A DNA stretch of 64,000 nt from an uncultured Planctomycetia bacterium (GCA_964373805.1 CAYJWF010000002.1:13861-77860); one strand, 5' to 3'. Positions 6,081-55,123 are shown, counted from the stretch's first letter. The notes: generated by a model from the sequence alone, not told the origin. Program-made: numbers and translations.

Positions 6081-7946
6081 TCAAGGCGCAACCTGCAATT
6101 CGTAGAGGCGACGATAGACGGAAGAGGCCTCCATCAGCTCCTGGTGACGTCCGCTTCTCGTGGCCCGGCCTTGGTCCAGCACGACGATCCGATCGACGTT
6201 TCGAATGGTCGAGAGACGGTGTGAGATGATGAAAACGGTCCGCCCCCGCATCAATCGATCCAAGGCCTCTTGCACCAGAGCCTCCGATTCCGAATCCAAC
6301 TGGGATGTCGCCTCATCGAGAATCAGGATCGGCGGATCCTTGAGCAGCGCCCGGGCAATGGCAATCCGTTGACGTTCCCCGCCTGATAAACGGGCGCCTA
6401 ATTCCCCTACGGCGGTGTCGTAGCCTTGGGGGAGACGTCGGATAAAACCGTCCGCGTTGGCTGCCTGGGCGGCTCGAACGACTTCTTCCAAGCTGGCCGT
6501 CGGCTTTCCAAAAGCGATGTTGTTCCGGATCGTGTCGTGGAACAGAAACGGCTCTTGGGTCACCAGACCGATTTGGTTCCGAAGAGAAAGTAGGGTGACC
6601 TTCCGAAGGTCCAGGCCATCGATGGAGACGCGGCCGCGGGCCGGATCGTAGAAACGAGGGAGGAGGTTCACCAACGTCGTCTTCCCCGATCCACTCGATC
6701 CCGCAATGGCCACCACCTCCCCCCTGCGGACGGTGAGGTCCACCCCTTGAAGCACAAAGGAGCCCCTCGCTGAGGCTCGGGACTTTTCTGGACTGGCCGC
6801 TGGCGCAGTCAGAAACGTAGAGGAAGGAGCCTGGCTGGCAGGCCGGTACTGAAACCAAACCTCTTCAAATCGGATCTCCCCCTTAAAACCTGGAAGGTCA
6901 AAAGCCCCGGGCTCCTCTCGGACAGAGGGTTGAATCTCCAGCGTCTCCACCACCCGTTTGGCCGCGGTCAAGGCCTGTTGGTTGACCGAATGGAGCCGGC
7001 TCAATCGTTTCACCGGCTGGTAGAGGGAGAGGAGGGCCGCCAGGAAGAAAACGATCGTTCCGGGCGAAAGTTGGCCGTTCAGCACCGCCCGGCCTCCCAC
7101 CTCCAGCACGATCAGCCCTCCGGCCATGCTGATCAAGTCGGTGATTCCGGCTAGGGCCTCCCGGCGCTTGACCGTCTTGACGTTGGCCTTGTAATACTGC
7201 TGGTTGATCGCCGCGAAACGGGCCCCCTCCTTCTCCTCAGCGGAAAAGGCCTTGACGACTCGGATCCCCTGCAAGGTCTCGATGAGCCGACTGTTCAAGT
7301 CGGCCATCCGATCCTGCACCTGGAATCCTAACTTCCGCAGGGCCTTGCCGATCCGGACAATCGGATAGCCCAGAGCCGGCAACAACAGAAGCGTCACAAA
7401 AGCCAGCTTCCATTGGATGGAAAAAACGATTCCCAGGAAAACGGCCACCTGGGCCGTCTGGTAAACCAGGTCGGTGATCCCCTCGGTGATCGTGTTCTGC
7501 AGCACCGAAACATCGTACGTGATCCGTGAGACCAATTCCCCGGTCCGCTCACCGCTGAAGAAATCCAGCGACAGCCGATGGTACTGGCGGTAGAGGGCGT
7601 TTCGGACGTCCCTTAAGAACCGGGCCGAGACATCGTTCATCAGGTAGGTCTGGTAGAAGAGAACCAGGTTCTTCAAGAGGAACAGGACCACCATGGCGAT
7701 CGCCAGAAGGTGCAGCCGCTGGGCGGGATCTACCGCTTGGAACCGTTCGATCCACCCCACCACCGGGCCCGGAACCCAAGGGGGAAGCTGGACCGTTCGG
7801 TTTAAAAGGACGATGTCCACCAACGGGACCAGCATCCCGAGTGATACCCCTTTAAAAAGACTGGACACCAGCATGCAGAACGCGGCCACCCCCAACAGGC
7901 CAACGTGGGGTTTAAGAAACGGAAGTAATTTGGTGTAAATCTTCAC
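6081..7946 (-). CDS. ABC transporter permease/ATP-binding protein, MsbA-like lipid exporter, carrying an in-frame ~20-aa repeat-element insertion
   Basis: Six-TM N-terminal domain plus NBD with Walker A GSSGSGKTT, LSGGERQR signature, Walker B ILILDEATS; extra segment ASQAPSSTFLTAPAASPEKSRASARGS between the YRP motif and the VLQGVDL strand. Confidence 0.85.
   Translation of the reverse strand: MKIYTKLLPFLKPHVGLLGVAAFCMLVSSLFKGVSLGMLVPLVDIVLLNRTVQLPPWVPGPVVGWIERFQAVDPAQRLHLLAIAMVVLFLLKNLVLFYQTYLMNDVSARFLRDVRNALYRQYHRLSLDFFSGERTGELVSRITYDVSVLQNTITEGITDLVYQTAQVAVFLGIVFSIQWKLAFVTLLLLPALGYPIVRIGKALRKLGFQVQDRMADLNSRLIETLQGIRVVKAFSAEEKEGARFAAINQQYYKANVKTVKRREALAGITDLISMAGGLIVLEVGGRAVLNGQLSPGTIVFFLAALLSLYQPVKRLSRLHSVNQQALTAAKRVVETLEIQPSVREEPGAFDLPGFKGEIRFEEVWFQYRPASQAPSSTFLTAPAASPEKSRASARGSFVLQGVDLTVRRGEVVAIAGSSGSGKTTLVNLLPRFYDPARGRVSIDGLDLRKVTLLSLRNQIGLVTQEPFLFHDTIRNNIAFGKPTASLEEVVRAAQAANADGFIRRLPQGYDTAVGELGARLSGGERQRIAIARALLKDPPILILDEATSQLDSESEALVQEALDRLMRGRTVFIISHRLSTIRNVDRIVVLDQGRATRSGRHQELMEASSVYRRLYELQVAP
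6759..6817 (-). repeat. Family-1 ~58-bp repeat element, copy inside msbA-like CDS (in-frame)
   Basis: Reverse complement CGTTTCTGACTGCGCCAGCGGCCAGTCCAGAAAAGTCCCGAGCCTCAGCGAGGGGCTCC matches copies at 15504, 49480, 50754, 55066. Confidence 0.75.
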
Positions 7947-7975
7947 CGAGACCTACATTTTATCATGCTATACTA

Positions 7976-8950
7976 TTGCACCACAATATGAAACCGATAG
8001 GAGCCAAACCGATTAAGGTCGCCGTGATTGGGTGCGGCCATTTAGGAACCATTCACGCCCGGATCTATTCGGAACTTCCTTTTGCGCAATTGGTTTCGGT
8101 CTGTGACATCCTTCCAGATCGGGCCGAGTCGGTCGCCCGCCAATATGGCGGCCTTCCCCTCACCCATTTTCGAGAGCTGCTGGATCGGGTGGAGGCGGTT
8201 TCGATCGCGGTACCCACCCCCCTTCACTTTTCCTTGGCCAAGGCTTTTCTCTCCCGGGGAATCCACGTCTTAGTCGAAAAACCGATCACCCGCACGGTCC
8301 GAGAAGCAGATCGGCTTCTTCAACTGGCCAACGAATCCAAAGCGATCTTCCAGGTCGGCCACGTGGAACGATTCAACGCGGCCCTTCGGAAGGTGACCGA
8401 TCTCTTGAAAGACCCGCGGTTCATCGAGGTCCATCGCCTCGCCCCCTTTCAGCCCCGTGGAACCGAGGTGGGCGTCGTTCTGGATCTCATGATCCACGAC
8501 ATCGACATCCTCTTGGGGCTCGTGAAGAGCCCCATCCACCGCATCGAGGCGGTGGGGGTGAAGGTTCTTACCCCTTTTGAAGACATCGCCAACGCTCGAA
8601 TCTCTTTTGTAAACGGGGCCGTGGCCAATCTAACCGCGAGCCGGATCTCTAAAGAGGCGATGCGGAAGTTCCGGATTTTCCAAACCGACGCCTACGTGTC
8701 GATCGATTTCTTAAGTCCCGCGGCCGACCTCTACCAACATCGGGACGGTCAAATCCTCCATGAGACTCTCGCCATCCCTCAGGAAGAGCCGCTCAAGGCG
8801 GAGCTGGAGGCTTTCCTGGAATCGATCCATCATCGCCGTCCTCCGGTGGTCTCGGGGCCTGAGGCCCGCGAAGCCTTGAACGTGGCCTTAAAGATCACCC
8901 GCCAAATCGAGCGTCAGGTCCAGAAGGGGCTCATCCCCTCCCACAGATGA
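7976..8950 (+). CDS. Gfo/Idh/MocA-family NAD(P)-dependent oxidoreductase (GnnA-like candidate), translationally coupled to lpxB; likely true start ATG at 7988
   Basis: N-terminal Rossmann motif IKVAVIGCGHLGTIHA, EKP motif (VLVEKPIT); stop overlaps lpxB start (8947..8950). Confidence 0.8.
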   Translation: MHHNMKPIGAKPIKVAVIGCGHLGTIHARIYSELPFAQLVSVCDILPDRAESVARQYGGLPLTHFRELLDRVEAVSIAVPTPLHFSLAKAFLSRGIHVLVEKPITRTVREADRLLQLANESKAIFQVGHVERFNAALRKVTDLLKDPRFIEVHRLAPFQPRGTEVGVVLDLMIHDIDILLGLVKSPIHRIEAVGVKVLTPFEDIANARISFVNGAVANLTASRISKEAMRKFRIFQTDAYVSIDFLSPAADLYQHRDGQILHETLAIPQEEPLKAELEAFLESIHHRRPPVVSGPEAREALNVALKITRQIERQVQKGLIPSHR

Positions 8951-11749: not shown

Positions 11750-12049
11750 TTAGGAGCCGACGATGTCGAAGAGTCCCTCTACCACGCGGTTGCCCTCTTC
11801 CTCTGGAAGATGGGTTAGCTTGGAACCCAGTCGCTCGGAAGAGAGGGTCCGAATCTGACTGATCTTAATCCAGGAAGGCTTGGGAAGCAGCCGTTCGGGG
11901 GGTTCATACGTTAAGGGAAACCCAGCCCGCTGCGGCCGGCTGGTGATGGCCAGCGCCATCACCGTGCCCGAGTGGGCGTTGAAGGTCTCGTGGCTGATCA
12001 CCACTATCGGCCGGCGGCCCGCCTGTTCTCTGCCACGAGTGGGCTCCAT
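11750..12049 (-). CDS. MazF/PemK-family endoribonuclease toxin; N-terminal strand apparently frameshifted (first 13 codons MARILRGDIYWAD lie in another frame, ORF 11904..12086)
   Basis: EQAGRRPIVVISHETFNAHSGTVMALAITS matches MazF core; upstream frame carries RGDIYWAD, the typical first beta strand, separated by a +1 shift near 12049. Confidence 0.6.
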   Translation of the reverse strand: MEPTRGREQAGRRPIVVISHETFNAHSGTVMALAITSRPQRAGFPLTYEPPERLLPKPSWIKISQIRTLSSERLGSKLTHLPEEEGNRVVEGLFDIVGS

Positions 12050-12389: not shown

Positions 12390-13727
12390 TTACAGCAGGG
12401 GGAGGTAGGTTTTCAGTTCGTAGTCGGTGACGGCGGCGCGGTAGCGCTGCCACTCGATCCGCTTGTTCTGCAAGAAGGAGGTGAAGATGTGGTCTCCCAA
12501 CGCCTCTTTGAGGAGGCTCGAACCCTCCGCAACCTCAATGGCCTCTCCCAAATCCCGGGGCAAGGCTTGGACCTTCAGCCGACGTCGTTCCTCCTCGGTC
12601 AAGGCCGACACATTCGTTTCCGCCGCCGGAGGAAGCGGCTCGTTGTCCTTTAATCCCTTCAAGCCGGCCGCCAAAATTGCGCTAAAGGCCAGATACGGAT
12701 TGCAGGCCGGATCCGGGGATCTCAACTCCAGCCGACAGGCCGACTCCTTCCCTGGCTTCGTCCGAGGAATCCGAACGAGATCGGCTCGATTGGTCAGAGC
12801 CCAGGTCACATAGACCGGCGCCTCGAATCCAGGGGTGAGCCTCTTGTAGGAATTGACCCATTGGTTGGTGACGACGGTAAACTCCCGAACATGTTTTAAC
12901 ATCCCAGCAAGGAACTTCTTCGCGACGTCCGACAAGCCGGTGGGATCGTTCGCATCGAAGAAGGCGTTCCGTTCTCCCTTAAAGAGAGAGATGTTGACGT
13001 GCATCCCGGAGCCGTTTTCTCCTTTTAAAGGTTTCGGCATGAAGGTGGCGTACACCCCATTTTTCAAGGCGATCTCCTTGACGACGAGGCGGTAGGTCAT
13101 TACCGAGTCGGCCATGGTGAGGGCGTCCGTGTAGCGAAAGTCGATCTCATGTTGGGAAGGGGCCACCTCGTGGTGACTGAACTCCACCCCCATCCCCAAC
13201 TCCTCCATGGCCAGGATCGTCTCCCGCCGAAGATCGCTGGCAAAGTCCAGGGGGGTAAGATCGAAGTAACCGCCGATGTCGAGTGGTGTCGGATCCTCGG
13301 ACGATTTGAAGTAGAAATGCTCCAGCTCCGGCCCCACGTAAAAGGTGTAGCCCAACTCCGCGGCCTTCTTTAAGTTCTGCTTTAAGATGGTGCGGGGATC
13401 CCCTTCAAACGGCTCTCCACCCGGCTTGACGATGTCGCAGAACATCCGGGCCACCGCGTTCTCCTTAGGCCGCCAAGGCAAGATCGCAAAGGTGTTGGGG
13501 TCCGGGAGGGCCACCATGTCCGATTCCTCCACTCGGGTAAATCCCTCCACGGCGGAGCCGTCGAAGCCGACCCCCTCCTCGAGCGCCTCCTCCAGCTCCT
13601 CGATGGTAATGGCCACATTCTTTAGCAGCCCTAAGATGTCGGTAAACCAGAGCCGAATGAACTTGACGCCCAGATCGCGGGCCGACTTTAAAACGTACTC
13701 TTTGTCTTTGAGTGTGACTGCTGGCAT
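12390..13727 (-). CDS. glnA: Glutamine synthetase type I (GSI-alpha-like, 445 aa)
   Basis: GS beta-grasp and catalytic motifs: FDGSAVEGF, HHEVAPSQHEIDF, KPLKGENGSGMHVNISL, NPYLAFSAILAAGLKG. Confidence 0.85.
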   Translation of the reverse strand: MPAVTLKDKEYVLKSARDLGVKFIRLWFTDILGLLKNVAITIEELEEALEEGVGFDGSAVEGFTRVEESDMVALPDPNTFAILPWRPKENAVARMFCDIVKPGGEPFEGDPRTILKQNLKKAAELGYTFYVGPELEHFYFKSSEDPTPLDIGGYFDLTPLDFASDLRRETILAMEELGMGVEFSHHEVAPSQHEIDFRYTDALTMADSVMTYRLVVKEIALKNGVYATFMPKPLKGENGSGMHVNISLFKGERNAFFDANDPTGLSDVAKKFLAGMLKHVREFTVVTNQWVNSYKRLTPGFEAPVYVTWALTNRADLVRIPRTKPGKESACRLELRSPDPACNPYLAFSAILAAGLKGLKDNEPLPPAAETNVSALTEEERRRLKVQALPRDLGEAIEVAEGSSLLKEALGDHIFTSFLQNKRIEWQRYRAAVTDYELKTYLPLL

Positions 13728-13875: not shown

Positions 13876-15483
13876 TTACACGTCAAAATACAGATAGAAC
13901 TCGTACGGATGGGGTCGGAGCTTGACCTTCGGAATCTCCTGCCGCTTGTACTCGAGCCACACCTCGATCACGTCCTTGGTGAAGACGTCCCCTTTAAGGA
14001 GAAAGGCGTGATCCCTTTCCAAGGCGTCTAAGGCTTCTTCCAGTGAACCGGGCACCGTTGGGATCTTGGCCGCTTCCTCCCGGGAGAGCTCGTAGGTGTT
14101 CTTATCCAGAGGCTGACCCGGATCGATCCGGTTCTGAATCCCATCCAACCCGGCCATCAGCATGGCTGGGAAGGCGAGGTACGGGTTGCAGGAAGGATCC
14201 GGCGGCCGGAACTCCACCCGCTTCGATTTCGGATAGTCCACGTAGACCGGGATTCGGCAGGCGGCCGACCGGTTCCGGGCCGAATAGGCCAAGTTCACCG
14301 GCGCCTCGTAACCCGGCACCAACCGCTTGTACGAGTTGGTTGTGGGGGCCGCGAAGGCCAGGATCGAAGGGGCATGCTTGATCAGGCCCCCGATGTACCA
14401 CTTGCACAGCTGGCTGATCAAGGCATAGCCGTTCTTGTCGTAGAAGAGGTTCTTGCCCTCTTTCGCCAAGCTCTGGTGGGTATGCATCCCCGATCCGTTG
14501 TCGCCGTAAAGCGGCTTCGGCATGTAGGTGGCCACCTTGCCGTGCTTGCGGGCCACATTCTTGATGATGTATTTCAACATCAACAAGTGGTCGGCCATCT
14601 TGGTTAAGGAGGCGTACCGCATGTCGATCTCCGCCTGACCGGCCGTCGCCACTTCGTGATGGTGCTTCTCCACCGGAACCCCAGCCGCCCGTGCCGTATT
14701 CATGATTTCGCTGCGGATGTCCTGGAAAGTGTCGTGGGGGGGCACCGGGAAGTAACCCTCCTTGAATCGGGGTTTGTAGCCTAAGTTCGGCTTCTCCTCC
14801 CGACCGGAGTTCCACTCCCCCTCGATTGAATCCACATAGTAATAGCTGGAATTTTCCGTGGAATCGAAGCGGATGTCGTCAAAGATGAAGAACTCCGGTT
14901 CCGGCCCCCAGTAGCTGACGTCGGCGATGCCGGTCTTCTTAAGATACAACTCCGCTTTCTTCGCGATGTAGCGGGGATCCCGACTGTACGGCTGTTTGGT
15001 CAAAGGGTCAAAGATGTCGCAAACCAAGCTTAAGGTGGGAACGCCACACACCGGATCCAGCACCGCGGTGGAAGGGTCTACGAAAAGGTTCATGTCCGAC
15101 TCCTGGATCTTCTGGAACCCACGAATCGAGGAGCCATCGAATCCAATCCCATCCACCCAAATCCCTTCTTTGGAATTCTCGCTCAGTTCCGAGACCGGAA
15201 TCGAGAAGTGCTGCCACATCCCAGGCAGGTCGTTAAACTTAAGATCCACGACCTGGATGTTGTGGTCCTTGATCAGTTTAAACAGGCGCCGAATCTCGCT
15301 TTCGTCCACTTTCGCCGGACCGGCGGCCGCCTGGGTTTGAGTCGTCCCTTCAACACGCGCTCGGCTTCTTGCCATCGTTTCCTTTACCCTTTCCCTTTCT
15401 AGGGTCATTGTACCACCACGCCCTTGTGCCATGTCGCTCGTTCCTCCACTGTTCTTACTTCGGGTTACGGTTGATCGAGCCAT
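13876..15483 (-). CDS. glnA: Glutamine synthetase type I (GSI-beta-like); annotated start gives ~65-aa N-terminal extension, true start may be downstream
   Basis: [59 protein letters not shown]; adenylylation-loop region present. Confidence 0.8.
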
Positions 15484-15503
15484 AAAAAGGCAGCCTCCTA
15501 TAA

Positions 15504-15561
15504 GTTTTTGGCTGCGCCAGCAAACAGTCCAGAAAAGTCCCGAGCGGAGCGAGGGGCCTCC
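15504..15561 (+). repeat. Family-1 ~58-bp repeat element, intergenic copy (glnA-glnK spacer)
   Basis: GTTTTTGGCTGCGCCAGCAAACAGTCCAGAAAAGTCCCGAGCGGAGCGAGGGGCCTCC. Confidence 0.75.
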
Positions 15562-15562
15562 C

Positions 15563-15901
15563 CTATAACGCCGCTTCGCTCATCTCCCCGGTGCGAATCC
15601 GGATGACCTCCTCCACGGTTGAGACGAAGATCTTCCCATCCCCCACCGAACCGGTCTTGGCGGCCTCTTGGATCGCGCGGACGATTTTGCTGACGTCCTT
15701 GTCGCTCACCACAATCTCCAGCTTAACTTTCGGCAACAGTTCCACCCGGTACTGCTCCCCTCGCCACTGCTGAACCACCCCTTTCTGCTTGCCGTGGCCT
15801 TCCACTTCGGAGATGTTGAGGCCCGGGAAGCCCACCTTTTCTAAGGCCCGACGAACTTCATCCACCTTCTCAGGACGAACGATGGCTTCGATCTTCTTCA
15901 T
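15563..15901 (-). CDS. glnK: Nitrogen regulatory protein P-II
   Basis: 112 aa [20 protein letters not shown]...GDGKIFV; overlaps amtB start by 4 nt (glnK-amtB pairing). Confidence 0.9.
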
Positions 15902-21522: not shown

Positions 21523-22347
21523 CTAGGCGTAGTGCCGAAGCAGGCTCTTTACCTTAGGAAACTTCAAATGCTCAAGCTCATTTGGATCCAGCACGAAACG
21601 CTCCAGTTCCAAGCGCACCGCTTTCCAATCCACTGCTTCGAGTTCATCCTCCACCCACCCGGGAAACTCTCGCTCCTTAATCTCACTCCCACCTCCCTGC
21701 GTCTGGCGAATGGCGTTGTTGAGCAGTTTCAGGTTGGGCATGACACCCCGCCCCAGATACCAGACCAGATCGTAAACATCCCTTCCCTTCCGGTAGCGAC
21801 GAAAGAACAAGGCGTGGAGCTTCAGCGCGAAAAGCGAAGGCAGATCAAAGACGGTCACCGCGTAAGAAATGGGGGTCGTCACCAGCTCCACCTCGGTCTT
21901 TCCTCCCTTAGGGGGACGGGTGTCGATCTCCCACTTGAGCGTGAGTTTCTGCTCCGGCAGGTCCGAGAGATTGAACTCCTTCAATAAACCGGGGAATCGG
22001 CAATCGGCCGTCCGGACCGTCTTCTCTTTCCGGGGATAAACCTCGCATCCCAGCCCTTGAAGCTTAAGATCCTTGGCTACCTTCTCAAGGAGGGTCTGAA
22101 ACTCAAACCCTTCCGAATGGAGGAGGGAAAAATCCAGATCCTCCGAATAGCGATTCGTCCGATACAGCAGCCTCAAGGCGGTCCCACCGGTAAAGACAAG
22201 GTTTTGAAAGGCTCCATGACGGGACAGGCTCTGCAGCGTGAGATGTTGGAGGATCTCCGCGAGGGCCAGACGCTTCAAGTGAGGCTGAGGAACCCGGTCC
22301 AACTCTCGACGGATCAGATCCTTCAACGCAGCACCTCCTGGATCCAC
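21523..22347 (-). CDS. AbiEii/AbiGii-family nucleotidyltransferase toxin (type IV TA / abortive infection)
   Basis: 274 aa with FTGGTALRLLYRTNRYSEDLDF motif diagnostic of DUF1814/AbiEii. Confidence 0.75.
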   Translation of the reverse strand: MDPGGAALKDLIRRELDRVPQPHLKRLALAEILQHLTLQSLSRHGAFQNLVFTGGTALRLLYRTNRYSEDLDFSLLHSEGFEFQTLLEKVAKDLKLQGLGCEVYPRKEKTVRTADCRFPGLLKEFNLSDLPEQKLTLKWEIDTRPPKGGKTEVELVTTPISYAVTVFDLPSLFALKLHALFFRRYRKGRDVYDLVWYLGRGVMPNLKLLNNAIRQTQGGGSEIKEREFPGWVEDELEAVDWKAVRLELERFVLDPNELEHLKFPKVKSLLRHYA

Positions 22348-34467: not shown

Positions 34468-34478
34468 CTTTCTTCTCC

Positions 34479-45900: not shown

Positions 45901-46265
45901 GCTGCCGCTACCGCCTCCATCAGGAAGGCAAGGAGAACCTGATCAGGCTGATCGCTGTACCGCTTGAAATCCTCTGGCGCATACTGGAGGATGTGGAGGC
46001 TTGGGATGTACCGCCACTGGGGCCAGTCCCCTTCCCAGAGCGCCTCCCAGGTCCGAAGCTGAAGCTTGTAGTCGCCGGTAAATGTACGGGCTAATCGAGT
46101 TAGGCGATCCAGAAATTGCGGATCGATCTCTCGGAGGGCCTCCTCAAGCCCCGACTCGACCGTCGCAGAACCCACTCCCTGTGTCCGGAGAGCCCACGCA
46201 GGATGCGGCAGACTGAGGATGACTGCAAGCAAAAGCGCTACAGACGTGCGCCAGAATCTTGGCAT
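36921..46265 (-). CDS. Giant (3114 aa) multidomain protein: N-terminal signal/anchor, ~500-aa Gln/Ala-rich helical region, VWA (MIDAS) domain, two MoxR/midasin-like AAA_5 ATPase modules, duplicated ~55-aa module, beta-propeller-like repeats, C-terminal domain
   Basis: MIDAS LLDVSGSMQNP...THGGTD...VISDG; Walker A LLLIGQAGIGKS and second P-loop NIGDAGTGKN; Walker B VVWDEGNKALPGTLAAFNDFL; repeated SLYGG-PADWLGSDDTKLAELTGRLIGLG; single uninterrupted ORF ending 12 nt before bamA. Confidence 0.8.
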   Translation of the reverse strand: MPRFWRTSVALLLAVILSLPHPAWALRTQGVGSATVESGLEEALREIDPQFLDRLTRLARTFTGDYKLQLRTWEALWEGDWPQWRYIPSLHILQYAPEDFKRYSDQPDQVLLAFLMEAVAAAIHLDFSVVDPPLATNGAFLALLRATGIPWARARVTARLPGMQADFVNLDTALYSQKLEAAQGAMGQLPLFLQFLEGILYEGRRQTVAKPGEQVKDERIVSPEVREALDQTRLTRQKSVGIEFSSLYRMVRDDLWPVAERLLQFDPRMRDQRLEETVRQMAPKFPLAGVIPQGLLSGRPGSASPEAMGKLHEDLQRRAEKVGQLARDLSRAAQEIVGEAKTAEQSAGGLGSGAQEVRHAAGAAPIPSKQLENLTQMSQILQKEVGDLCTQAQESAAQAKQVPEYAERLSQLAPGPVQKLRDLAHRLPGQFEQIEAQAKELTEKAERLPDQAQALAKEGNQPKPDVSTLRDLARSVQEQAASVAQQAGQIQDLAQGAESTAGAVARESKNISSRKSPQERIFEAARSIAEWANPELKKQRQQAEAMALTLRRILQELAQGVWPQAQAQGKPELAAEAKQAGQDAKSISGALHELLQMLAQLAERLKNLKGMAQGDPGVPLQVILIIEGMDEAGQQAGRIQAQVIVIQSRFNQLAQESSGTPMADTAQKLSQQSQSLGEQAASISEGIRQAGQQARSQAQESGIPIPTAPTPPDFSPGGLGETLPELIGEELLKVLPPAAPKPAEVPLSPVELGDMAKLQREFEVSPQERRGRERQAVQRQQEQRKVRKEALTDQRDRYRRYVAKRLSLISVARAHLFQSVQMRETTEYVGGLREGDDLDEEELPLASTGWPFIFQDVLDPGKVKQRRSFLLDVSGSMQNPVDWENWKSQGLDLEELLRKKKEAVEKEERKIDHALDLLVTLAEAVAPVPGQQFEITLFSNWTPNASIVVKRFDEKWDEQKAAFVVDQALNLTHGGTDDVGAVAEEMARLREGADTETEKILWVISDGLSGAGGASAMAQLMEKNPDIRIFGWGLGPAMAAVKQTYGPYGIHIPQMHQLVRKGIFTMNQEMRRPVRPWKPSGPSPQAGPEAGLEEVASERLPLAFPRLSPFEGLPGAGELLFHRQGDQAWFEIDGIRIDPPNTLKIELSDWTVLKLKQMWDVLRHPTRNNLLLIGQAGIGKSLYARYIWEIYRGWLQGKATQMTDSTLATVRSQLLNYVHQTRVRVVTFNENMRKPNVTERLSHRGEEMEWSTSDIVEGGELGDLVILSEVNRAPGSVLAELNDPLQSRVKVLHDRVARFHPNSRFVAAINPPEGDIVSLMQYKGRQLPGEFLTRFGKLRLDYPSEKLADGKDNLEFALFQEHERQILRQQRRRKTTDGDWVVSDGIIDGLLEAARLLRADARQAESPFVVTTRALVRMVRHLDTFPEDLARIPDIFFKSYWVDDTVHGDGMEQHVQDLLERVFKPTHWPAGQPWPAARSLAVEPIVVPSDPQTDSSSFIRYPHWPADVRISLATGTGGLIPTKLFRKSAGNLRKLEDLLKSVALGEHLLNIGDAGTGKNYFMEILARTLKRNLIVLGMSKDFKVRDMLVIRWYEKGKTLWRDSLPLAYLRPDRVAREGPPIVVWDEGNKALPGTLAAFNDFLAERRVLMDNGEEFVLPEGAVVGLNMNPPRPPYEVYELSAEFVDRWAIHRYGYPEENDEVAILREDHPTIPEEAIRSVVKAANVLRPLFRQGELYEPPDMRLTEAAVGNLSLRPDQSVPLIDLILRTYVPLKEGEPETIRKALQDAKLDIQVNPSPEAALRTLIAKITDPDVAARREAAKLGLGSDLSLSPQLVPALLEAFSRETDSQAKTIQAAALGRHLPAPTDTQKGLVLTGSFPDLPQRLSTEQLKDHLYRLATSQSWAQFLEVVDAFLSQPDDRLRSTFQRALAWQRLDSNSNPIAMPGDLYSDPRMDRLLTWLSAGPASGLEEEPTSTELIRSGRQEFGKGTKPQRAVQAMRLYGGKPADWLGSDDTKLAELTGRLIGLGIPADILPTEEALAKIKAELEKPIPPEEETRGAPATLGDDWAGLTPKDIEIVLRNWLSSQYLSTEDPNTGYGESYRFRAILQDPIPVTDPRGSVVTHRDSHGKNALSVVRYTKPGDPEDNRVNFYISADSPLSLSRLVDLVAGEVAHHRHEDPTTLEAGLFRQLVQSFPQLRPVWLIAQTGLGTTRISQIPVLAGFLLHGDDPLSMKVLEEFKKRLDGFLSARPGVKHLVVPLEVGGPFLTELLQIAGLQPGDLIAAARRDPQGVDQIVRPAFHQAMEGVNEFMDGWVSQIRAGSTSFNPPIPSDWNRRLFEILVEKQKRGINVVPLREEPSFESWWRFLLARERENLALQQVKDPSAESQVKADLLHAAQEKLASAYQRDDVQIGLELISALKALMYLEEDPEPESTVMVVPRGRMHAFQTERLLKGRFSNVEMVRMEELDTNAQLRPIDRYVEALVQRGVQPGAAPADVERLVDEEIAQLRGQVPPDPPTEPKTGLEELSDELRVILERPRYGPTNVEYADQKLNETTQWLRSTPRLLRRDILAVENLILLAHHFDWPHVHGALRHAGPAFKEAMERISNASSLSLSPYSGRPPISKAALIRWGRREFVDRGSKPQRAVHAMSLYGGNPADWLGSDDTKLAELTGRLIGLGVEPSQHLEEPILSQVRTQLEALEKLTNGEAAPWFKPKRMEPSETVRQVVTLRKADYDPDTDILVEGVSGIFKNTREIRLFQGETGELIKNIPVRSLEAVNDVAQDLRNRRLFVAFVSQIRTFDPETGQEIAPTISTLNPSVVVYDADDNTLLVPVGPDLPGQLSICRLLRFDATTGEQIGEPFGEYRFTGDMAYVSDRKLLFVTDDREKLRVYDMATEPPAELPSKALNEPTTIHYDPESDTVLVKVKDGIQTFSPDEWKPSAGLEEDMVRIARVLATELKTQPLIGIGPSGLKTDGPELIGFLDRLKAQVPALGPFLVVIGPEAPSYADHPSVLLAAGGLEEAAGSLALLGAGRMGYLDTEDGAEALNRLLQSRGVPITVTHLPMGDLPFVLKRILGNLAGLEEGLSQSEVESFYGIRLNKLADHLKELAKVSV
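38230..38344. repeat. Intragenic 115-bp direct repeat, copy 1 (inside giant gene)
   Basis: ~90% identical to 40186..40300. Confidence 0.7.
40186..40300. repeat. Intragenic 115-bp direct repeat, copy 2 (inside giant gene)
   Basis: ~90% identical to 38230..38344; both encode the PKPQRAV-A-LYGG-PADWLGSDDTKLAELTGRLIGLG module. Confidence 0.7.
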
Positions 46266-48508: not shown

Positions 48509-48991
48509 TTAAAAAGGAACCTCTCCGGACTCCGCCTCCGGTGGAAGCCCGGGAACGTCGGCGGATCCGACGGCCTCCTCCACGGTAGGAGCGGTCCGCT
48601 CCCGAGAAACTTGTTCCGGAACCTCTTCCAAAGAAGAACCTCCCTCGGCCCCTGGTTTGGGAGCCTTGCTCAAAAACTGGATGTTCTGGGCGACCACCTC
48701 GATGGTGGACCGTTTTTGGCCTTCGGGCGTCTCCCACGACCGACTCTGCAAGCGGCCTTCCACAAAGAGCGGAGATCCTTTTGAAAGGTACTCTCCGCAG
48801 AGCTCCGCTTGTCGGGCCCACGCCACCACCCGAACAAAGCAGCTCTCCTCCCGTTTCTCCCCTGAGGCCAAGGTATAAGCCCGGTTCGTGGCTACGGTGA
48901 AGGTCGCCACCGCCGTTCCACTGGGGATGTAGCGCAGCTCCGGATCCCTCGCCAGCCTTCCAATCAAGAACACCTTATTCAGATTTGCCAT
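48509..48991 (-). CDS. ssb: Single-stranded DNA-binding protein
   Basis: [23 protein letters not shown]-fold N-terminus; Gly/Pro-rich linker; acidic tail ending ...EVPF. Confidence 0.85.
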
Positions 48992-49313
48992 CGGACGTCT
49001 CCCGTTTAGTCTCTTGCGGAGGTTTACCCCCTTGAAAGATCGTCAAGCGCACCAGCGACTCCATGGAAGCAATCGTCTTCCTCAAAGAGGAGATTTCCAA
49101 AGGGGGCACCTCAAAGTTCACTTTGAGATAGATCCCTTCGGTCACCCGCTTGATTCGGTAACTGAGTCTCCTTTTCCCTAAAGGGGTGCACCCCAAAACC
49201 TTTCCCCCGAGACGGAGCACCTGTTCGCCAAACTGATGGGTGAACTCCGTCAGAGCCTGTTCACTCAAATCGGGGGCCGCGATGATCAGCGCCTCGTACT
49301 CTCTCATGGGCAT
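48975..49313 (-). CDS. rpsF: 30S ribosomal protein S6
   Basis: MREYEALIIAAPDLSEQ...; rpsF-ssb-rpsR-rplI order. Confidence 0.85.
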   Translation of the reverse strand: MPMREYEALIIAAPDLSEQALTEFTHQFGEQVLRLGGKVLGCTPLGKRRLSYRIKRVTEGIYLKVNFEVPPLEISSLRKTIASMESLVRLTIFQGGKPPQETKRETSDGKSE

Positions 49314-49320
49314 TTTCTCT

Positions 49321-49956
49321 CTAAACCCTCACCTTCTGGTTAAAAAGATTCATGGCAGCGGTCAAACCTTTCTGGACCCAAACCTCACAGGCCAACCCGG
49401 CGGCCCGTAAACCTTCCTCCAAGGGCTTCTTCTCCTCCAGACGGAAACGCCCCAAAACAAAAGGGGTCAACTCCCTTTTGCTTTTGGCTGCGCCAGCGAC
49501 CAGTCCAGAAAAGTCCCGACCATCAGCGAGGGGCTCCTCCAGGCCTGGATGGGCCCCAATCCCCACTCGGAGCCGCGCCACGTGATCGGAGTCTAACGCC
49601 TCTAAGATGGAACTTAACCCCCGATGCCCGCCGGCCGATCCCTGGCCCCGCAGTCGAATGGCGCCTAAGGGGAGCCGAACGTCGTCGCAAACAACGAGCC
49701 AACCGGACCGATCCAACTTCCATCGACGGACGAGACACCCTACCGCCTCCCCTGAGGCGTTCATCCAGGCGCGCGGCTGAACCAACCGGACCGAATGACC
49801 GTCGACAACCCCTTCCCCTACCCGACAGCGGCAGAGGGATTTTTTTAACGGGATCGACCATCGCTCCGCCAGTCGACCAACCACCGAAAACCCAACGTTG
49901 TGTCTCGTGCCGGCGTACGTCCTTCCAGGGTTGCCCAGCCCGATGATCACCTTCAC
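49321..49956 (-). CDS. pth: Peptidyl-tRNA hydrolase carrying an in-frame 20-aa repeat-element insertion
   Basis: MKVIIGLGNPG...TRHNVGF...GGHRGLSSIL...RLRVGIGAHPG; between GIGAHPG and FVLGRF lie 27 residues instead of the ~7 in E. coli Pth, encoded by repeat copy 49480..49540. Confidence 0.85.
   Translation of the reverse strand: MKVIIGLGNPGRTYAGTRHNVGFSVVGRLAERWSIPLKKSLCRCRVGEGVVDGHSVRLVQPRAWMNASGEAVGCLVRRWKLDRSGWLVVCDDVRLPLGAIRLRGQGSAGGHRGLSSILEALDSDHVARLRVGIGAHPGLEEPLADGRDFSGLVAGAAKSKRELTPFVLGRFRLEEKKPLEEGLRAAGLACEVWVQKGLTAAMNLFNQKVRV
49480..49540 (+). repeat. Family-1 ~58-bp repeat element, copy inside pth CDS (in-frame, translated as EEPLADGRDFSGLVAGAAKS)
   Basis: GCTTTTGGCTGCGCCAGCGACCAGTCCAGAAAAGTCCCGACCATCAGCGAGGGGCTCCTCC. 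Confidence 0.75.
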
Positions 49957-50729
49957 CCCTTCTGCTCTTGCGGCTTCTGCTGGGCTTTGGCCTTCTCCTT
50001 TTCTTTCGCCTTCTCCTTCGATTTTTCCTCAGCCTCCTCGGCGGCAATCTCTTCCGGCTTCTTCTGCTTCAAGACCTCCGGCTCTGCCGCCTCAGCGGGA
50101 GCCTCTGCCGCCGGCAACGCCTCTTCTTTCTTCGGCAAGACGCAGGCCGCCACCGGCAACTCCGGATCGGTGATCAACCGAATCCCCGGCGGTAAGGAAA
50201 CGGCCTTCACCAAGAGGGTCTTCCCCAAGCTTAAACCGGACACCTCCACCAGAATCTCGGGCGGAATCTCCGTAGGCAGACACTCGACCTGGAGATCCCA
50301 CCTAAGGTGCTCTAAGATCCCGCCCTCTTGCCTGACCCCGAGCGGCTCCCCTTTAAAGACGAGGGGAACCGTCACCGTAATCCTCTTGGTCAACGAGACC
50401 CGGTGGAAATCCACGTGGATGATCTGATGAGAAACGGGATGATGCTGGAGTTCCTTAATCAACACGGAGCCTTCCTTGAGCCGGCGTTCCCCACGGCCTT
50501 GGAGCTCTTCTTTAAGCTTCAGGGTGATCAAGACGTTCCCCCCGGCCTTGGTGCGCAGGATTTTTGAAAACCCCTTGGCTCCTACACGAATGGAAACCGA
50601 AGGCTCCTTCTCGCCGTAGACGATTCCCGGTATCCACCCCTCCCGGCGCAAGGACCGGGCCGCCCTCTTCCCACCGCCTTCTCGCGCCAACCCCTCCAAG
50701 ACGACTTGACTCGACGGCTTAGGGTTCAT
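49953..50729 (-). CDS. rplY: 50S ribosomal protein L25/general stress protein Ctc with Lys/Glu/Ala-rich C-terminal extension (start at MNPKPSS, not the upstream in-frame Met at 50849)
   Basis: GGKRAARSLRREGWIPGIVYG L25 N-terminus; ATG at 50727..50729 preceded by AAAGGAG and overlapping prs stop (TGATG); upstream 40 codons are repeat-derived. Confidence 0.8.
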   Translation of the reverse strand: MNPKPSSQVVLEGLAREGGGKRAARSLRREGWIPGIVYGEKEPSVSIRVGAKGFSKILRTKAGGNVLITLKLKEELQGRGERRLKEGSVLIKELQHHPVSHQIIHVDFHRVSLTKRITVTVPLVFKGEPLGVRQEGGILEHLRWDLQVECLPTEIPPEILVEVSGLSLGKTLLVKAVSLPPGIRLITDPELPVAACVLPKKEEALPAAEAPAEAAEPEVLKQKKPEEIAAEEAEEKSKEKAKEKEKAKAQQKPQEQKG

Positions 50730-51802
50730 CAACGCCTCCGAAGCTTCTCCTTTGTTTTTGGCTGCGCCAGCGGCCTGTCTAGGAAAGTGCCGCGCATCAG
50801 CGCGGCCTTCTCCATGGGTTCCTTGGCCAAAGGCGGGGCTTCCTCCCAATGGTCGTGAAAGAGAACGCTGAGCGACTCCTCCTGGTGGATCCGCCGGATC
50901 GCCTCCGCGAACAAGCCGGCCACGGAGAGAACCTTGACCTTCGGCATCCCTCGCCCGGCAGGGATGGGAATCGTATCGGTGACCACCAACTCCTTTAAAG
51001 GGGAGGCGGTCAACCGTTCCTTGGCCGGACCGGAAAGAACCGCGTGGGTCACGGCCGCGAACACCTCCTTCGCTCCAGCCTCCTTCAAGGCCCGCACCGC
51101 TTCCACGAGAGATCCGGCAGTGGAGACGAGGTCGTCCACGATGAGGGCGTTCTTGCCGTTGACCTCGCCCATGATGTCCATCACCTCGGCCTCCTCGTGA
51201 CTGATCCGACGTTTATCCACCATCGCCAAGGCGGACTGAAGGCGCTTGGCGTAGGCCCGGGCCATCTTAATGCCCCCCACATCCGGGGAGACCACCACCA
51301 GATCCGGAATCGGCCGCTCGGTCGTGAAGTATTCCACGAAGGTGTTCACCGCGAACAGATGATCCAAGGGAATGTCGAAGAATCCTTGGATTTGGCCCGC
51401 GTGCAGGTCCATCGTCAACACCCGATCGGCCCCGGCCACGGTAATGAGATTGGCCACCAGCTTCGCCGTGATCGGCACGCGCGGTTGGTCCTTGCGATCC
51501 TGGCGGGCGTAGCCATAGTAAGGAAGAACCGCCGTGATGCGCCGAGCCGAGGCCCGTTTCAACGCGTCGAGAAGGATGAGCAGCTCCATGAGATGGTCGT
51601 TCACCGGGGGTGCCGTCGGTTGGATCACAAAAACGTCCAGCCCCCGCACGTTCTGTTGGATCTTGACCCGAATCTCCCCCTCGCTAAAGCGCCCCACCAG
51701 CGCCTGACCCAGGGGAACCCCCAGCGCCTCGGCGGCCCTCGCCGCAAAAGCGGGGTGGGCGTTTCCACAAAAGAGAACCGGCGGATCCGTCTTAACTCCC
51801 AT
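50729..51802 (-). CDS. prs: Ribose-phosphate pyrophosphokinase with ~35-aa C-terminal extension read through a repeat element
   Basis: Prs motifs (VVSPDVGGIKMARAYAKRL, DLHAGQIQGFF); normal end near ...SLSVLFHD; tail MEKAALMRGTFLDRPLAQPKTKEKLRRR is encoded by repeat copy 50754..50813. Confidence 0.9.
   Translation of the reverse strand: MGVKTDPPVLFCGNAHPAFAARAAEALGVPLGQALVGRFSEGEIRVKIQQNVRGLDVFVIQPTAPPVNDHLMELLILLDALKRASARRITAVLPYYGYARQDRKDQPRVPITAKLVANLITVAGADRVLTMDLHAGQIQGFFDIPLDHLFAVNTFVEYFTTERPIPDLVVVSPDVGGIKMARAYAKRLQSALAMVDKRRISHEEAEVMDIMGEVNGKNALIVDDLVSTAGSLVEAVRALKEAGAKEVFAAVTHAVLSGPAKERLTASPLKELVVTDTIPIPAGRGMPKVKVLSVAGLFAEAIRRIHQEESLSVLFHDHWEEAPPLAKEPMEKAALMRGTFLDRPLAQPKTKEKLRRR
50754..50813 (+). 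repeat. Family-1 ~58-bp repeat element, copy at 3' end of prs (in-frame)
   Basis: GTTTTTGGCTGCGCCAGCGGCCTGTCTAGGAAAGTGCCGCGCATCAGCGCGGCCTTCTCC; contains hairpin GCCGCGC-ATCA-GCGCGGC. Confidence 0.75.
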
Positions 51803-51806
51803 GACT

Positions 51807-53087
51807 TTATCGCCCCCCCACGGTGGAACCGGCCTTGACCACCTGTCCGGGAGGAATTTGAAGAGGTCCTAAAATCAAGGTCCCCCCTTCCATCCGGGCT
51901 CGATCTCCAATTCGAATCGGATGGCTTAGAGAAGCCGCTGGCCCGAGGGCCGTGGTGAGGCTTCCTCTAGCCGAAGCCGCTTTCCGATGATTTCCCCCGA
52001 TGGTCACCGTCCCTACCCCCACGAAGACGCCCCGTCCAATGTGGGCGTGCGTGATGAAGCTGTGGTGGAGGATCCGACTCTTGGCCCCCACCCGACATTC
52101 GGCCAATTCCACAAAGTTGCCCACCTCCACCCCATCCTCTAAAATCGTCCCGGCCCCTACCCGACAAAAAGGGCCCAAGTGACAGCGGCGTCCAATCCGA
52201 ACCCCCTTTTCAATGACCGTGTGCGGATAGACCACGGTGTCCTGCCCAATCAAGGCCGATCCATCGATGTAGGTCGTATAGGGATCCACGATCGTCACCC
52301 CACCCAACATAAATTTTTCGAGCACACGGCTGCGCATGACGGTCTGCACGCGGGCCAGGTCCGCCCGGGTGTTGATCCCCAGGAACTCCCCCACGGACCG
52401 GGTAGACGCCGAGGCCAAGGGGGCTCCCTGCTTGACCAAGTAGGCGACCGTGTCGGTGAGGTAATACTCGCCGTTGCGCGCTGGCCGAATCCGCTTTAAA
52501 CTTTCCCTCAGGGCATTGGCCTTGAAGCAGTAGGCCCCGACGTTGATCTCCTCAATGGCCCGCTCCGTTGGGGTGGCATCGGCCTCCTCAACAATCCGGA
52601 CGACTCGACTGGTCTCATCCCGAACGACTCGACCGTAGCCGGTCGGCTCCTTAAGGAAAGCCGTCAGCAACGTACAGGCGGCCCTTTCCCGATGATGGGT
52701 CTCCATCAATCCCCGGATGGTTTGTGCCGTCAACAGGGGGGTATCCCCATACAGAACGACGATATCCCCTTGAAAGCCGGCCAAGCGTGGCAGGGCCTGT
52801 TGAACCGCGTGGGCGGTTCCTTTCAAGGGCCGTTGGACTACAGTCTTGACCGCCGGTCCGATTTGATCCTGAACCAAATCGGACCGGTAACCGACCACCA
52901 CGACGATCCGTTCAATACCGACCTCCTGGACCGCCTCCAGCACATGGCAAATCAACGGCTTGCCATAGAGGGAATGAATCACCTTGGGGATTTGGGAAAG
53001 CATCCGCGTCCCATCCCCGGCCGCCAGGACGATGGCCGCCACGTTCTTCTCTTCCTTACGCCTAGGCGACGGCCGCCTGTTTTCCAT
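51807..53087 (-). CDS. glmU: Bifunctional GlcNAc-1-P uridyltransferase / GlcN-1-P acetyltransferase
   Basis: N-terminal [13 protein letters not shown] nucleotidyltransferase motif; C-terminal left-handed beta-helix. Confidence 0.85.
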
Positions 53088-54333: not shown

Positions 54334-54513
54334 TTCCTCTTCGTTTCTCGATCACCTGAAGGTGATCGGTTCCAGGAAAATCCCGCCCTCGGGGGATCCC
54401 CCTAGGTTCTCGTCCAGGCTAAGCCAACTCTTCCTCTCCCGTGAAACTCCTATTCGTCGTTTCACGGGACTTTCCTGGGCCGGCCCCTACGGGGCCTCAA
54501 ATCTTAGAGGACG

Positions 54514-54584
54514 TTGCCCCGCTAGGACTCGAACCTAGATAACCAGACCCAAAATCTGGCGTCCTACCATTGGACGACAGGGCA
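54514..54584 (-). tRNA. tRNA-Gln (anticodon UUG)
   Basis: Reverse complement TGCCCTGTCGTCCAATGGTAGGACGCCAGATTTTGGGTCTGGTTATCTAGGTTCGAGTCCTAGCGGGGCAA folds as cloverleaf with anticodon loop UU-UUG-GG; followed by GC hairpins. Confidence 0.7.
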
Positions 54585-54645: not shown

Positions 54646-55062
54646 CTACGCAGGGTGTCCCTCTGGGGAGGGTCCCCGTTTCAGTTCCGCCTCGTACGCC
54701 TGAAGAACCTTCTCTTGAATCGCCTGCCGACACTCAACGGTGATGGGATGGGCAATGTCCCGGTGCTCGGTGGAACCTTCCCCGTGGGATTCCGGGCCCG
54801 AATCTTTGGGGAGCGTCGTCGGATTGAACGCCCCCCCACACTGATTGCAGAATCGGCACCGGACGACGTTCCGGAACCCACATTGGGGACAGGGCCTCTT
54901 CGCCCGTTCCGAGGGCATAGCCACAAAGAGGCCTTTGTTGCCCTCAATGACCTTGACGTTTCGAACGACGAAACAACCGTCGAAGGTGATCGTCGCATAG
55001 GCCTTCAATTTCGATCCGGCCTCAGGGTTTCTCAAAAAAATGCGAACGTCTGTGACTTCCAC
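54646..55062 (-). CDS. spoVG: SpoVG-family protein with ~42-aa zinc-ribbon insertion
   Basis: MEVTDVRIFL...VIEGNKGLFVAMPSE and HRDIAHPI flank an inserted segment KRPCPQCGFRNVVRCRFCNQCGGAFNPTTLPKDSGPESHGEGST (CxxC-x7-CxxCxxC). Confidence 0.8.
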   Translation of the reverse strand: MEVTDVRIFLRNPEAGSKLKAYATITFDGCFVVRNVKVIEGNKGLFVAMPSERAKRPCPQCGFRNVVRCRFCNQCGGAFNPTTLPKDSGPESHGEGSTEHRDIAHPITVECRQAIQEKVLQAYEAELKRGPSPEGHPA

Positions 55063-55065
55063 TAC

Positions 55066-55123
55066 GTTTCTGGCCGCGCCAGTGGCCGTCCAGGAAAGTC
55101 CCGCGCATCAGCGCGGGGCTTCC
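55066..55123 (+). repeat. Family-1 ~58-bp repeat element, intergenic copy filling the ispE-spoVG spacer
   Basis: GTTTCTGGCCGCGCCAGTGGCCGTCCAGGAAAGTCCCGCGCATCAGCGCGGGGCTTCC; hairpin CCCGCGC-ATCA-GCGCGGG. Confidence 0.75.

Follow-up and report, generated by a model that had tools for sequence, protein, structure and literature searches.

How can the same short repeat lie between genes and, in frame, inside essential genes of one genome? This question is raised by a 64-kb stretch of bacterial DNA (GCA_964373805.1, CAYJWF010000002.1:13861-77860; one strand, hereafter the window), in which a sequence-only reading had recognized five copies of a repeat of about 58 bp and likened their behavior to that of Rickettsia palindromic elements (RPEs). 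The copies, denoted c1 to c5, are located in an msbA-like ABC exporter gene (c1), the glnK-glnA spacer (c2), the peptidyl-tRNA hydrolase gene pth (c3), the 3′ tail of the ribose-phosphate pyrophosphokinase gene prs (c4) and the ispE/spoVG junction (c5). Our analysis, which covers the window and a few short contigs, indicates with a probability of roughly 80% that they constitute a family of mobile DNA elements, very small and non-autonomous, which produce 7-bp target duplications at purine-rich, Shine-Dalgarno-like targets. The assignment of the host to the phylum Omnitrophota rests on the nearest named homologues of the window proteins, which come from Candidatus Omnitrophica/Omnitrophota genome bins. 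The GC content of the window is 55-60%, which is only moderately high, although the genome had been described as high-GC.

The five copies were found within a few bases of where they had originally been placed, but approximately 10 nt had been missed at one end, and the inversion of c1 relative to the other four strong copies had not been noted. Aligned in a common orientation, they display a mean column identity of 89% over 57 columns and pairwise nucleotide identities of 73-93%; c1 is 91% complementary to c3 over 57 nt. With at most 3 mismatches allowed, the 18-nt core CAGTCCAGAAAAGTCCCG was matched 5 times in the window, compared to 0.08 expected matches, and none of the 100 shuffled sequences reached 5 matches, placing the similarity among the loci above the shuffled expectation. 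These 5 matches include a diverged copy, c6, but not, at this stringency, the copy in prs (c4). The shorter, 14-nt core CCAGRAAARTCCCG yielded 6 matches (0.18 expected). A covariance model built from the five copies assigned them scores of 70.6-83.9 bits (E values of 1e-16 to 5e-20), with the next-best score in the window, obtained in a scan without filters, being 15 bits. Two additional copies, c6 (immediately 3′ of a tRNA gene) and c7 (directly upstream of the clpX start), which share the clpX-tRNA gene spacer, are older, diverged members of the family.

Filled and empty alleles of two genes on a single contig of a sister strain provide unusually clean evidence of insertion. The contig (L005, run SRR22387996; 93% nucleotide identity), aligned to positions 48700-51500 of the window, lacks the copies in pth and prs, with the two gaps being exactly 63 nt each. 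At prs, a perfect target-site duplication of 7 bp (CTTCTCC at 50744-50750 and 50807-50813 of the window strand) is evident: the empty site reads GGAACCCCT-GGAGAAG-CTTCGG, whereas GGAGAAG, 56 nt and GGAGAAG-CTTCGG follow one another in the filled one. The duplication flanking c5 is also perfect (CTTCCAC at 55056-55062 and 55119-55125, or GTGGAAG on the gene strand), and because it differs from that of c4, the duplicated sequence must come from the target rather than being carried by the element. Together, the c4 and c5 duplications fix the ends of the element, which is 56 nt long. The corresponding sequences at pth are CTGGAGGATTTGACC for the empty allele and, in the filled allele, CTGGAGGAG on one side of the element and GGGAGTTGACC on the other; here, the duplication is imperfect (GGAGGAG and GGGAGTT, with GGAGGAT in the empty site), having diverged since the insertion. 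Identical Pth, Prs and GlnK proteins are also encoded on Logan contigs (ERR4904390, ERR4904391, ERR4904392, ERR3478686) and on one 109-kb NCBI contig. An assembly artifact is ruled out, since identical filled alleles are present in the contigs assembled independently from the four runs. Exact-protein look-ups of GlnK and NrdR returned the same organism only; those of SpoVG (with two candidate starts), ClpX and IspE returned no record, from which nothing is concluded. In pth, the region 5′ of the insert (49550-49720) is only about 75% identical to the sister-strain contig over approximately 170 nt, compared to 93-99% in its surroundings, which suggests a recombination tract or locally accelerated change.

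The unit added by insertion is 63 nt long in c3, c4 and c5. Since this length is found even in c5, which is under no frame constraint, preservation of the reading frame is built into the element. Stop codons are absent from five of the six frames of the consensus, the sixth carrying the TGA of CTGATG, although by our own estimate five open frames at this GC content are statistically unremarkable (roughly p = 0.15). Read on the strand that starts GCCCC, all seven flanks contain GGA and are purines at 6 or more of their 7 positions, whereas such 7-mers account for 4.5-5.5% of those in the window. Both empty sites are purine-rich (GGAGAAG and GGAGGAT), indicating that the bias stems from the target rather than from the element ends.

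These observations are consistent with a scenario in which an enzyme encoded elsewhere in the genome would move the element in trans, probably recognizing its hairpins (see below) together with the core. Such an enzyme would cut the target with a 7-bp stagger, yielding the 7-bp duplication and hence the addition of 56 + 7 = 63 nt. The target would be a purine-rich, Shine-Dalgarno-like, GGA-containing sequence (approximately G-R-G-G-A-R-G) with a fixed orientation with respect to the element. Given a unit of 21 codons and five stop-free frames out of six, insertion into a coding sequence would usually be in frame and add 21 residues, among which Pro, Ala, Ser, Gly, Lys and Arg would be abundant. 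Selection could then retain copies at permissive sites, namely the Pth loop, the Prs C-terminal tail and the MsbA loop. The copies in essential genes would thus represent survivors of purifying selection, and the element itself would probably be selfish rather than beneficial to the host.

Table 1. Copies of the repeat element and the genes that they affect; flanks are given on the strand that starts GCCCC
Feature	Coordinates	Strand	Details	Covariance-model score	Fold z-score	Flank
msbA-like ABC exporter	6081..7946	-	621 aa
c1, in msbA-like gene	6756..6826	-	core 6763-6819 (57 nt) plus 7-nt flanks	83.9 bits	-2.5	GAGGAAG
c2, in 79-nt glnK-glnA spacer	15494..15565	+	core 15501-15556	70.6 bits	+0.35	TAGGAGG
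pth, peptidyl-tRNA hydrolase	49321..49956	-	211 aa; most relatives 187-198 aa
c3, in pth	49471..49540	+	70-nt unit; 56/57-nt core 49477-49533 plus flanks	78.5 bits	+1.2	GGAGGAG
prs, ribose-phosphate pyrophosphokinase	50729..51802	-	357 aa
c4, in 3′ tail of prs	50744..50813	+	56-nt core 50751-50806	74.7 bits	-2.8	GGAGAAG
c7, diverged, directly upstream of clpX start	54340..54397	+	exact core	15.2 bits (E 0.037)	-2.45	AGAGGAA
c6, diverged, immediately 3′ of tRNA gene	54438..54506	-	exact 14-nt core	13 bits (E 0.14)	-4.5	GAGGACG
tRNA gene 5′ of c6	54514-54584	-
spoVG, start affected by c5	54646..55062	-	SpoVG Pfam profile position 1 at residue 1 of the open reading frame
c5, ispE/spoVG junction	55056..55125	+	56-nt core 55063-55118	79.1 bits	-3.8 (best of the five strong copies)	GTGGAAG

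As originally proposed, the open reading frames (ORFs) of pth, prs and the msbA-like gene remain open across the copies in three different combinations of frame and orientation, and the encoded peptides are exactly those quoted in the sequence-only reading. In Pth, the insert comprises 21 residues, at about positions 140-160 (...GLEEPLADGRDFSGLVAGAAKSKRE...). The closest relative, a 190-aa protein (P0002) encoded on the sister-strain contig, lacks exactly this segment, which is absent from all 11 other Omnitrophota orthologues aligned (P0002 and ten more distant ones). The best PDB alignment breaks off at query residue 139 and picks up again at residue 160, both positions corresponding to chain residue 142. 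In an AlphaFold model based on a 12-sequence alignment, the predicted local distance difference test score is ~90-97 in the core but below 50 for residues 137-161, which are devoid of secondary structure. Thus, the insert is predicted to form a disordered loop between the last β-strand (RLRVGIG) and the C-terminal helices. In Prs, the insert, also of 21 residues, falls in the C-terminal tail, past the conserved domain, and is missing from the sister strain. The proposal of in-frame, lineage-specific insertions at loop or tail positions is borne out for pth and prs by the 63-nt gaps and, for pth, also by the orthologue alignment and the PDB and AlphaFold comparisons. Tryptic peptides predicted from the two inserts are DFSGLVAGAAK (Pth) and GTFLDRPLAQPK (Prs).

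The msbA-like gene is less straightforward. Translation of c1 gives ...STFLTAPAASPEKSRASARGSF..., and the extra residues follow the A-loop Tyr (FQY, continued by RPAS...) in the β1-β2 loop of the nucleotide-binding domain, in agreement with the loop position suggested for this copy. However, the length of this hypervariable loop differs among Omnitrophota, from 0 to ~20 extra residues, and the sister-strain msbA contig (L006; 89% nucleotide identity) carries a different segment of 36-37 nt at this position rather than a clean empty site. Judged by its sequence, c1 is clearly a member of the family (91% identical to c3), but a clean, lineage-specific insertion event, which had been proposed here as well, is demonstrated for pth and prs only.

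The copies at gene junctions bear on translation signals rather than on protein sequence. On the gene-sense strand, c2 has on its left the flank TAGGGGAGG, which includes the TAG stop codon of glnK, and on its right TAGGAGG, which holds AGGAGG, the Shine-Dalgarno sequence of the downstream glnA (ATG at 15483); the same spacer with c2 is present in an independent assembly (L007). An insertion at a junction may therefore re-supply the downstream Shine-Dalgarno sequence through the duplicated target, as is clear for c2 and perhaps the case for c7, the purine flank of which, AGAGGAA on the gene strand, abuts the clpX ATG (54333-54331), closer than the typical Shine-Dalgarno spacing. The copy c5 had been placed in the ispE/spoVG spacer; the junction is correct, but the insertion is actually at the spoVG start codon itself. 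Its upstream duplicate lies 2 nt past the ispE stop codon and the downstream one contains the native spoVG GTG start (55060-55062), from which it follows that ispE and spoVG were tightly coupled before the insertion (TAG-GC-GTG). The original ribosome-binding site of spoVG, GAGAGGG, lies within the end of ispE, and the start is now 63 nt farther from it, with no obvious Shine-Dalgarno sequence at the current position; an insertion of this kind would separate a start codon from its Shine-Dalgarno sequence. The old start now opens a 5-codon mini-ORF (GTG GAA GCC CCG CGC TGA).

The genes next to c5 and c2 have some peculiarities of their own. SpoVG (138 aa) has an unusual architecture, with the 82-position Pfam profile spread over residues 1-124 and an internal zinc-ribbon-like insert, CPQCG...CRFCNQCG, which yields a weak DZR match at residues 56-76. 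Two glutamine synthetase genes (13876-15483 and 12390-13727) are arranged in tandem downstream of amtB-glnK, an arrangement preserved in relatives (L014 and L015), and the first of the two enzymes has an N-terminal extension of ~74 aa preceding the GS β-grasp domain.

Each element consists of two adjacent hairpins, A and B, linked by the conserved core CCAGRAAARTCCCG. In hairpin A, which conforms to TTTYTGG...CCAGRAAA, the inner stem is variable; hairpin B conforms to CCCGNGC-loop-GCGNGGG. In c1 and c2, the latter reads CCCGAGC/GCGAGGG, with tandem G.A mismatches, and c3 has CCCGACC, whereas both sides of the stem have changed in c4 and c5 to give perfect pairing, CC(C)GCGC/GCGCGG(G). The diverged copies c6 and c7 retain the left arm (TTTCTCG and ATTTGAGG) and the core, with hairpin sequences that are wholly different yet still self-complementary: the inner stem of hairpin A is ATCACC-TGAA-GGTGAT and the core CCAGGAAAATCCCG in c7, compared to GGCCCC-GTA-GGGGCC and CCAGGAAAGTCCCG in c6, where hairpin B is longer (CCCGTGAAAC...GTTTCACGGG). 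When single-stranded DNA folding was compared with dinucleotide-preserving shuffles, 5 of the 7 members yielded z-scores between -2.5 and -4.5 for the two-hairpin fold; in c2 and c3, the hairpins are decayed. The terminal trinucleotide varies (GTA, TTA, AAA, GAA). There are no terminal inverted repeats: the two ends, compared as TACGTTTCTGG... and the reverse complement CCCCGCGCTGA..., agree at only ~5 of 15 positions, and the folds pair the internal hairpins only, which argues against a classical transposable element of the miniature inverted-repeat type (MITE) moved by a DDE transposase.

The family looks young and lineage-restricted. No copy was found in syntenic DNA (62 kb) of three more distantly related Omnitrophota, in which the positions orthologous to those of c1-c4 were covered (best score of 11.8 bits, E = 0.28), as would fit a recent spread within one lineage. 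Two complementary degenerate patterns, representing both halves of the element, retrieved no copies from GTDB representative genomes or JGI metagenome contigs, and the single match in IMG/VR (L011) was due to chance, being confined to the core, with neither flanking similarity nor a covariance-model score; blastn against plasmids also returned no copies. A concatenate of the element peptides, compared against a database of 5.8 billion proteins, matched only Pth, Prs and MsbA, at 28-33 bits, a 20-aa peptide being too short for the absence of other matches to carry much weight. In Rfam 15, tRNAs alone reached the gathering score, with the best score on an element copy being 19.7 bits against a cutoff of 46 (E = 1).

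Several points weigh against a family of mobile elements. All copies examined, 5 strong and 2 diverged, come from the 64-kb window, among the ~40 ORFs of which we found no transposase, integrase, reverse transcriptase or HUH enzyme, nor was an autonomous partner of the element identified within the window. Elements that DDE transposases move typically have terminal inverted repeats, which are lacking here. Only c4 and c5 have perfect target duplications, those of c2 and c3 are imperfect, and the boundaries of c1 are ambiguous: its flanks, CTTCCTC and CTCCTTT, agree at 4 of 7 positions only, and an alternative repeat, GCTCCTT, occurring twice, is offset by 4 nt, so that the apparent unit is 64 or 67 nt and a later compensating indel is implied. 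The preference for purines and GGA (p ~1e-5 for the four best-defined sites) was assessed by a criterion set after the data had been seen. Finally, precise excision in the sister strain, as opposed to gain in the present one, is excluded only by outgroup parsimony. In its favor, the element is small, non-coding, present in several copies and polymorphic for presence: 56 nt, 5 + 2 copies in 64 kb and two sites empty in a strain of 93% identity.

Host selection offers a different explanation, according to which the repeat is a structured RNA or cis-regulatory module (an mRNA stabilizer, attenuator, protein-binding site or small RNA) acting at operon junctions, with the genic copies being incidental. 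The conserved two-hairpin layout, the paired changes in stem B and the replacement of the stems around an invariant core in c6 and c7 would fit such a function, as would the position of 4 of the 7 members (c2, c5, c6 and c7) at gene junctions in operons. However, conserved structure is equally expected if the mobilizing enzyme recognizes the hairpins, which moreover are decayed in c2 and c3. No Rfam match was obtained even at E values up to 10, and no promoter or terminator signals in the element exceeded the shuffled expectation. Given also that the element occurs in both orientations relative to transcription (c1 versus c3 and c4) and that its presence differs between 93%-identical strains and is accompanied by target duplications, we consider a regulatory module unlikely. 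Mobility itself could be of another kind, with a single-strand HUH/Y1 enzyme moving either repetitive extragenic palindromes (REPs) or REP-derived hairpins (REPINs), in conjunction with a REP-associated tyrosine transposase (RAYT), or an IS200/IS605-type palindrome-associated element; in both cases, hairpins and not inverted-repeat ends are what is recognized. The missing terminal inverted repeats, the two subterminal hairpins and the orientation-specific insertion beside a preferred short sequence point in this direction, and two copies end with ...CGTA followed by G, resembling the GTAG tag of REPs (PMC3733652). Such families insert without target duplication, though, whereas c4 and c5 have perfect 7-bp duplications of differing sequence, with one copy in the empty site; these duplications argue against REP/RAYT and IS200/IS605 chemistry. 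The variable terminal trinucleotide, without a conserved GTAG or CGTC tag, the copies within genes and the absence of a Y1 transposase gene from the window make this explanation quite unlikely.

Even less probable is spread in the manner of short interspersed nuclear elements, by target-primed reverse transcription, in which the A-rich tail of read-through transcripts, together with the old purine flank, would anneal to purine-rich targets and serve as the primer for cDNA synthesis. It would explain target duplications without inverted-repeat ends and the mutual resemblance of the targets, and the element indeed has an A-rich, variable 3′ end on the mRNA-sense strand just before the duplication (CCAAAAACAAA, CCAAAAGCAAAA and CAGAAACGTA), with 4 of the 5 strong copies being co-oriented with transcription. 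Yet purine-rich sense strands also account for the purine targets and the orientation bias, a 7-bp duplication of constant length would be expected from transposases sooner than from target-primed reverse transcription, and no reverse transcriptase is encoded in the window; we know of no bacterial precedent for such retroposition. Translational bypass, in which some copies would be cassettes over which the ribosome hops, as in T4 gene 60 and the mitochondrial byps, appears highly improbable. At spoVG, the hop would lead from GTG-GAA to GTG-GAA 63 nt downstream, and there, the identical codons flank c5, the upstream copy keeps the native ribosome-binding site, a TGA follows after five codons in a GC-rich hairpin loop, and the downstream start is devoid of a Shine-Dalgarno sequence; furthermore, bypass cassettes are known to be mobile (bioRxiv 10.1101/2022.08.31.505936). 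But c5 lacks most of the hallmarks of bypass: its stop codon is not adjacent to the take-off codon (it comes three codons after GAA), the landing site is not preceded by a mini-Shine-Dalgarno at ~6 nt, and with two codons read, there is essentially no nascent peptide. Matched codons are found in c5 only, and bypass is not required in the other genic copies, which are simply open. An artifact, in the form of assembly chimeras or independently evolved low-complexity peptide segments, can be all but dismissed: although the msbA loop is naturally of low complexity and variable length among relatives, it would have to be reconciled with 73-93% nucleotide identity across unrelated loci in different frames and orientations, with filled alleles in independent assemblies and with the empty sites of the sister strain.

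Among known repeats, the family described here resembles RPEs, and the resemblance is one of behavior only. Like RPEs, it is a short, palindromic, apparently selfish repeat found between genes and in frame in unrelated housekeeping genes, where the peptide occupies positions compatible with the fold. Whereas RPEs measure ~100-150 bp (Ogata et al. 2000, as summarized in PMC10969869) and reside in AT-rich Rickettsia, the element analyzed here is 56 nt long, occurs in Omnitrophota of 55-60% GC, has a 7-bp duplication and a 21-codon unit, and shows no sequence relation to them. The likeness drawn in the sequence-only reading therefore holds for behavior but not for size or sequence. To our knowledge, RPEs have no clear target-site duplications, a point on which the papers on RPEs cited here are silent. 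Mycobacterial interspersed repetitive units (MIRUs), attributed to Supply and colleagues (1997), are reportedly 40-100 bp long, located at gene junctions in operons, oriented with transcription and interacting with the flanking stop and start signals. They share with our family the occurrence of short repeats at operon gene junctions but are, as far as we know, mostly tandem, intergenic and minisatellite-like, and no cases are known in which they entered essential genes in frame with duplication of the target.

MITEs resemble the element in being non-autonomous and strain-polymorphic, with variable direct repeats of ~7 nt and a stable structure, and in lying sometimes in frame or at the 3′ end of an ORF; Coxiella QMITE2, for instance, measures 150-190 bp and has direct repeats of 7-11 nt (PMC5896051). 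However, MITEs are defined by terminal inverted repeats derived from a parent insertion sequence, of which the element has none, and it is two to six times shorter. REPs are extragenic palindromes of 20-40 bp that bear a conserved tag, GTAG or CGTC, and cause no target duplication (PMC3733652). The small size, hairpin-based architecture and orientation-specific placement are common to REPs/REPINs, palindrome-associated IS200/IS605-type elements and our family, which differs from the former by a variable terminus, three intragenic copies and 7-bp duplications, and from the latter, which insert 3′ of a fixed tetra- or pentanucleotide without duplication, by being flanked by duplications of variable sequence. 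Bypass cassettes (T4 gene 60 and Magnusiomyces mitochondrial byps) are mobile, hairpin-forming and 27-55 nt long, with bypass involving take-off and landing codons that match, a hungry or stop codon next to the former, a take-off stem-loop, a mini-Shine-Dalgarno ~6 nt before landing and a nascent-peptide signal (bioRxiv 10.1101/2022.08.31.505936). They are likewise short, hairpin-forming inserts in coding sequences flanked by matching codons, but the ribosome skips them and they usually contain stops or shift the frame, whereas the genic copies here are open and preserve the frame, so that simple read-through suffices.

In-frame insertion of small mobile repeats is already a known behavior, documented for RPEs, QMITE2, intragenic enterobacterial repetitive intergenic consensus (ERIC) sequences and Anabaena MITEs (PMC10969869, PMC5896051), with the latter two counted among gene-inserting bacterial repeats (PMC10969869). 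What sets the present family apart is the very small size, the clear 7-bp duplication without terminal inverted repeats, the 21-codon unit, the Shine-Dalgarno-like target and the host phylum. Whether the features add up to a mechanistically new class of prokaryotic mobile DNA is doubtful, if conceivable: such a class would be hairpin-defined, without terminal inverted repeats, with fixed 7-bp duplications, orientation-specific homing to Shine-Dalgarno-like motifs and a streamlined, nearly stop-free 21-codon unit able to colonize coding sequences and operon junctions at little cost to the host, and its mover would belong to a kind of enzyme so far unconnected with elements of this sort, either a structure-recognizing transposase or a reverse transcriptase. 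Should the mobilizing enzyme prove new, the family would be of wider interest for transposon biology.

The RPE-type phenomenon, that is, apparently selfish DNA surviving in essential genes, is thereby extended to Omnitrophota, a largely uncultured phylum, and of the bacterial mobile repeats for which a target duplication can be demonstrated, this element is one of the smallest. The 63-nt unit offers a simple account of how an element could be neutral in coding sequences, the frame being kept by its own length and not solely by later selection. The apparent preference for Shine-Dalgarno-like targets implies that insertions can rewire translation initiation at operon junctions, as at spoVG, glnA and clpX. 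In metagenome-assembled genomes, the inserts inflate and fragment gene calls and give rise to spurious lineage-specific loops in proteins; they can also serve as strain-level markers.

Pfam and PDB searches confirmed gene identities across the window, which encodes Pth (PF01195), Prs, L25, S6, SSB, S18, L9 and DnaB, GlnK, AmtB and two GlnA proteins, as well as IspE, SpoVG, ClpX and GlmU; the MsbA-type ABC exporter gene adjoins lpxB. A second pair of repeats, unrelated to the element family, is located at 569-616 and 51933-51980; the two copies (48 nt, 85% complementary) form two small hairpins and have the consensus GCGGCT.GGGCT.AAGGAAGCC.CACCACGGCCCTC.GGCC.GCGGCT. One copy abuts a tRNA gene (618-689, minus strand), whereas the other lies within glmU (51807-53087, minus strand), where it encodes 16 residues in place of a usually conserved left-handed β-helix motif. 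The PDB alignment is ungapped at this position, indicating a replacement rather than an in-frame length insertion.

The remaining observations concern genes away from the copies. Toxin-antitoxin and defense-type genes are scattered amid the housekeeping operons (1087-1776, 11750-12049, 21523-22952 and 27517-27843) and encode a fusion of a Gp49-like protein with a helix-turn-helix domain, a MazF/PemK toxin, AbiEii with its upstream partner and a small nucleotidyltransferase. In the single 449-aa ORF at 31481-32830, LpxC (residues 10-282) is fused to a FabA/FabZ-like dehydratase domain (residues 314-436); this ORF is part of an lpxI-lpxC/fabZ-lpxD-ompH-bamA cluster; the same fusion is found in a relative (L012). 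Two 31-nt direct repeats (TCTGACCCCTCCCCTCTGTCCTCT...), 84% identical and spaced 58 nt apart, occupy positions 34381-34469, at the 5′ end of the ompH-like ORF (33853-34467) and beside the bamA stop codon (34479). Between dnaB and bamA, a giant ORF of 3114 aa (36921-46265) contains 115-nt internal repeats of 91% identity, spaced 1956 nt apart (38230 and 40186).

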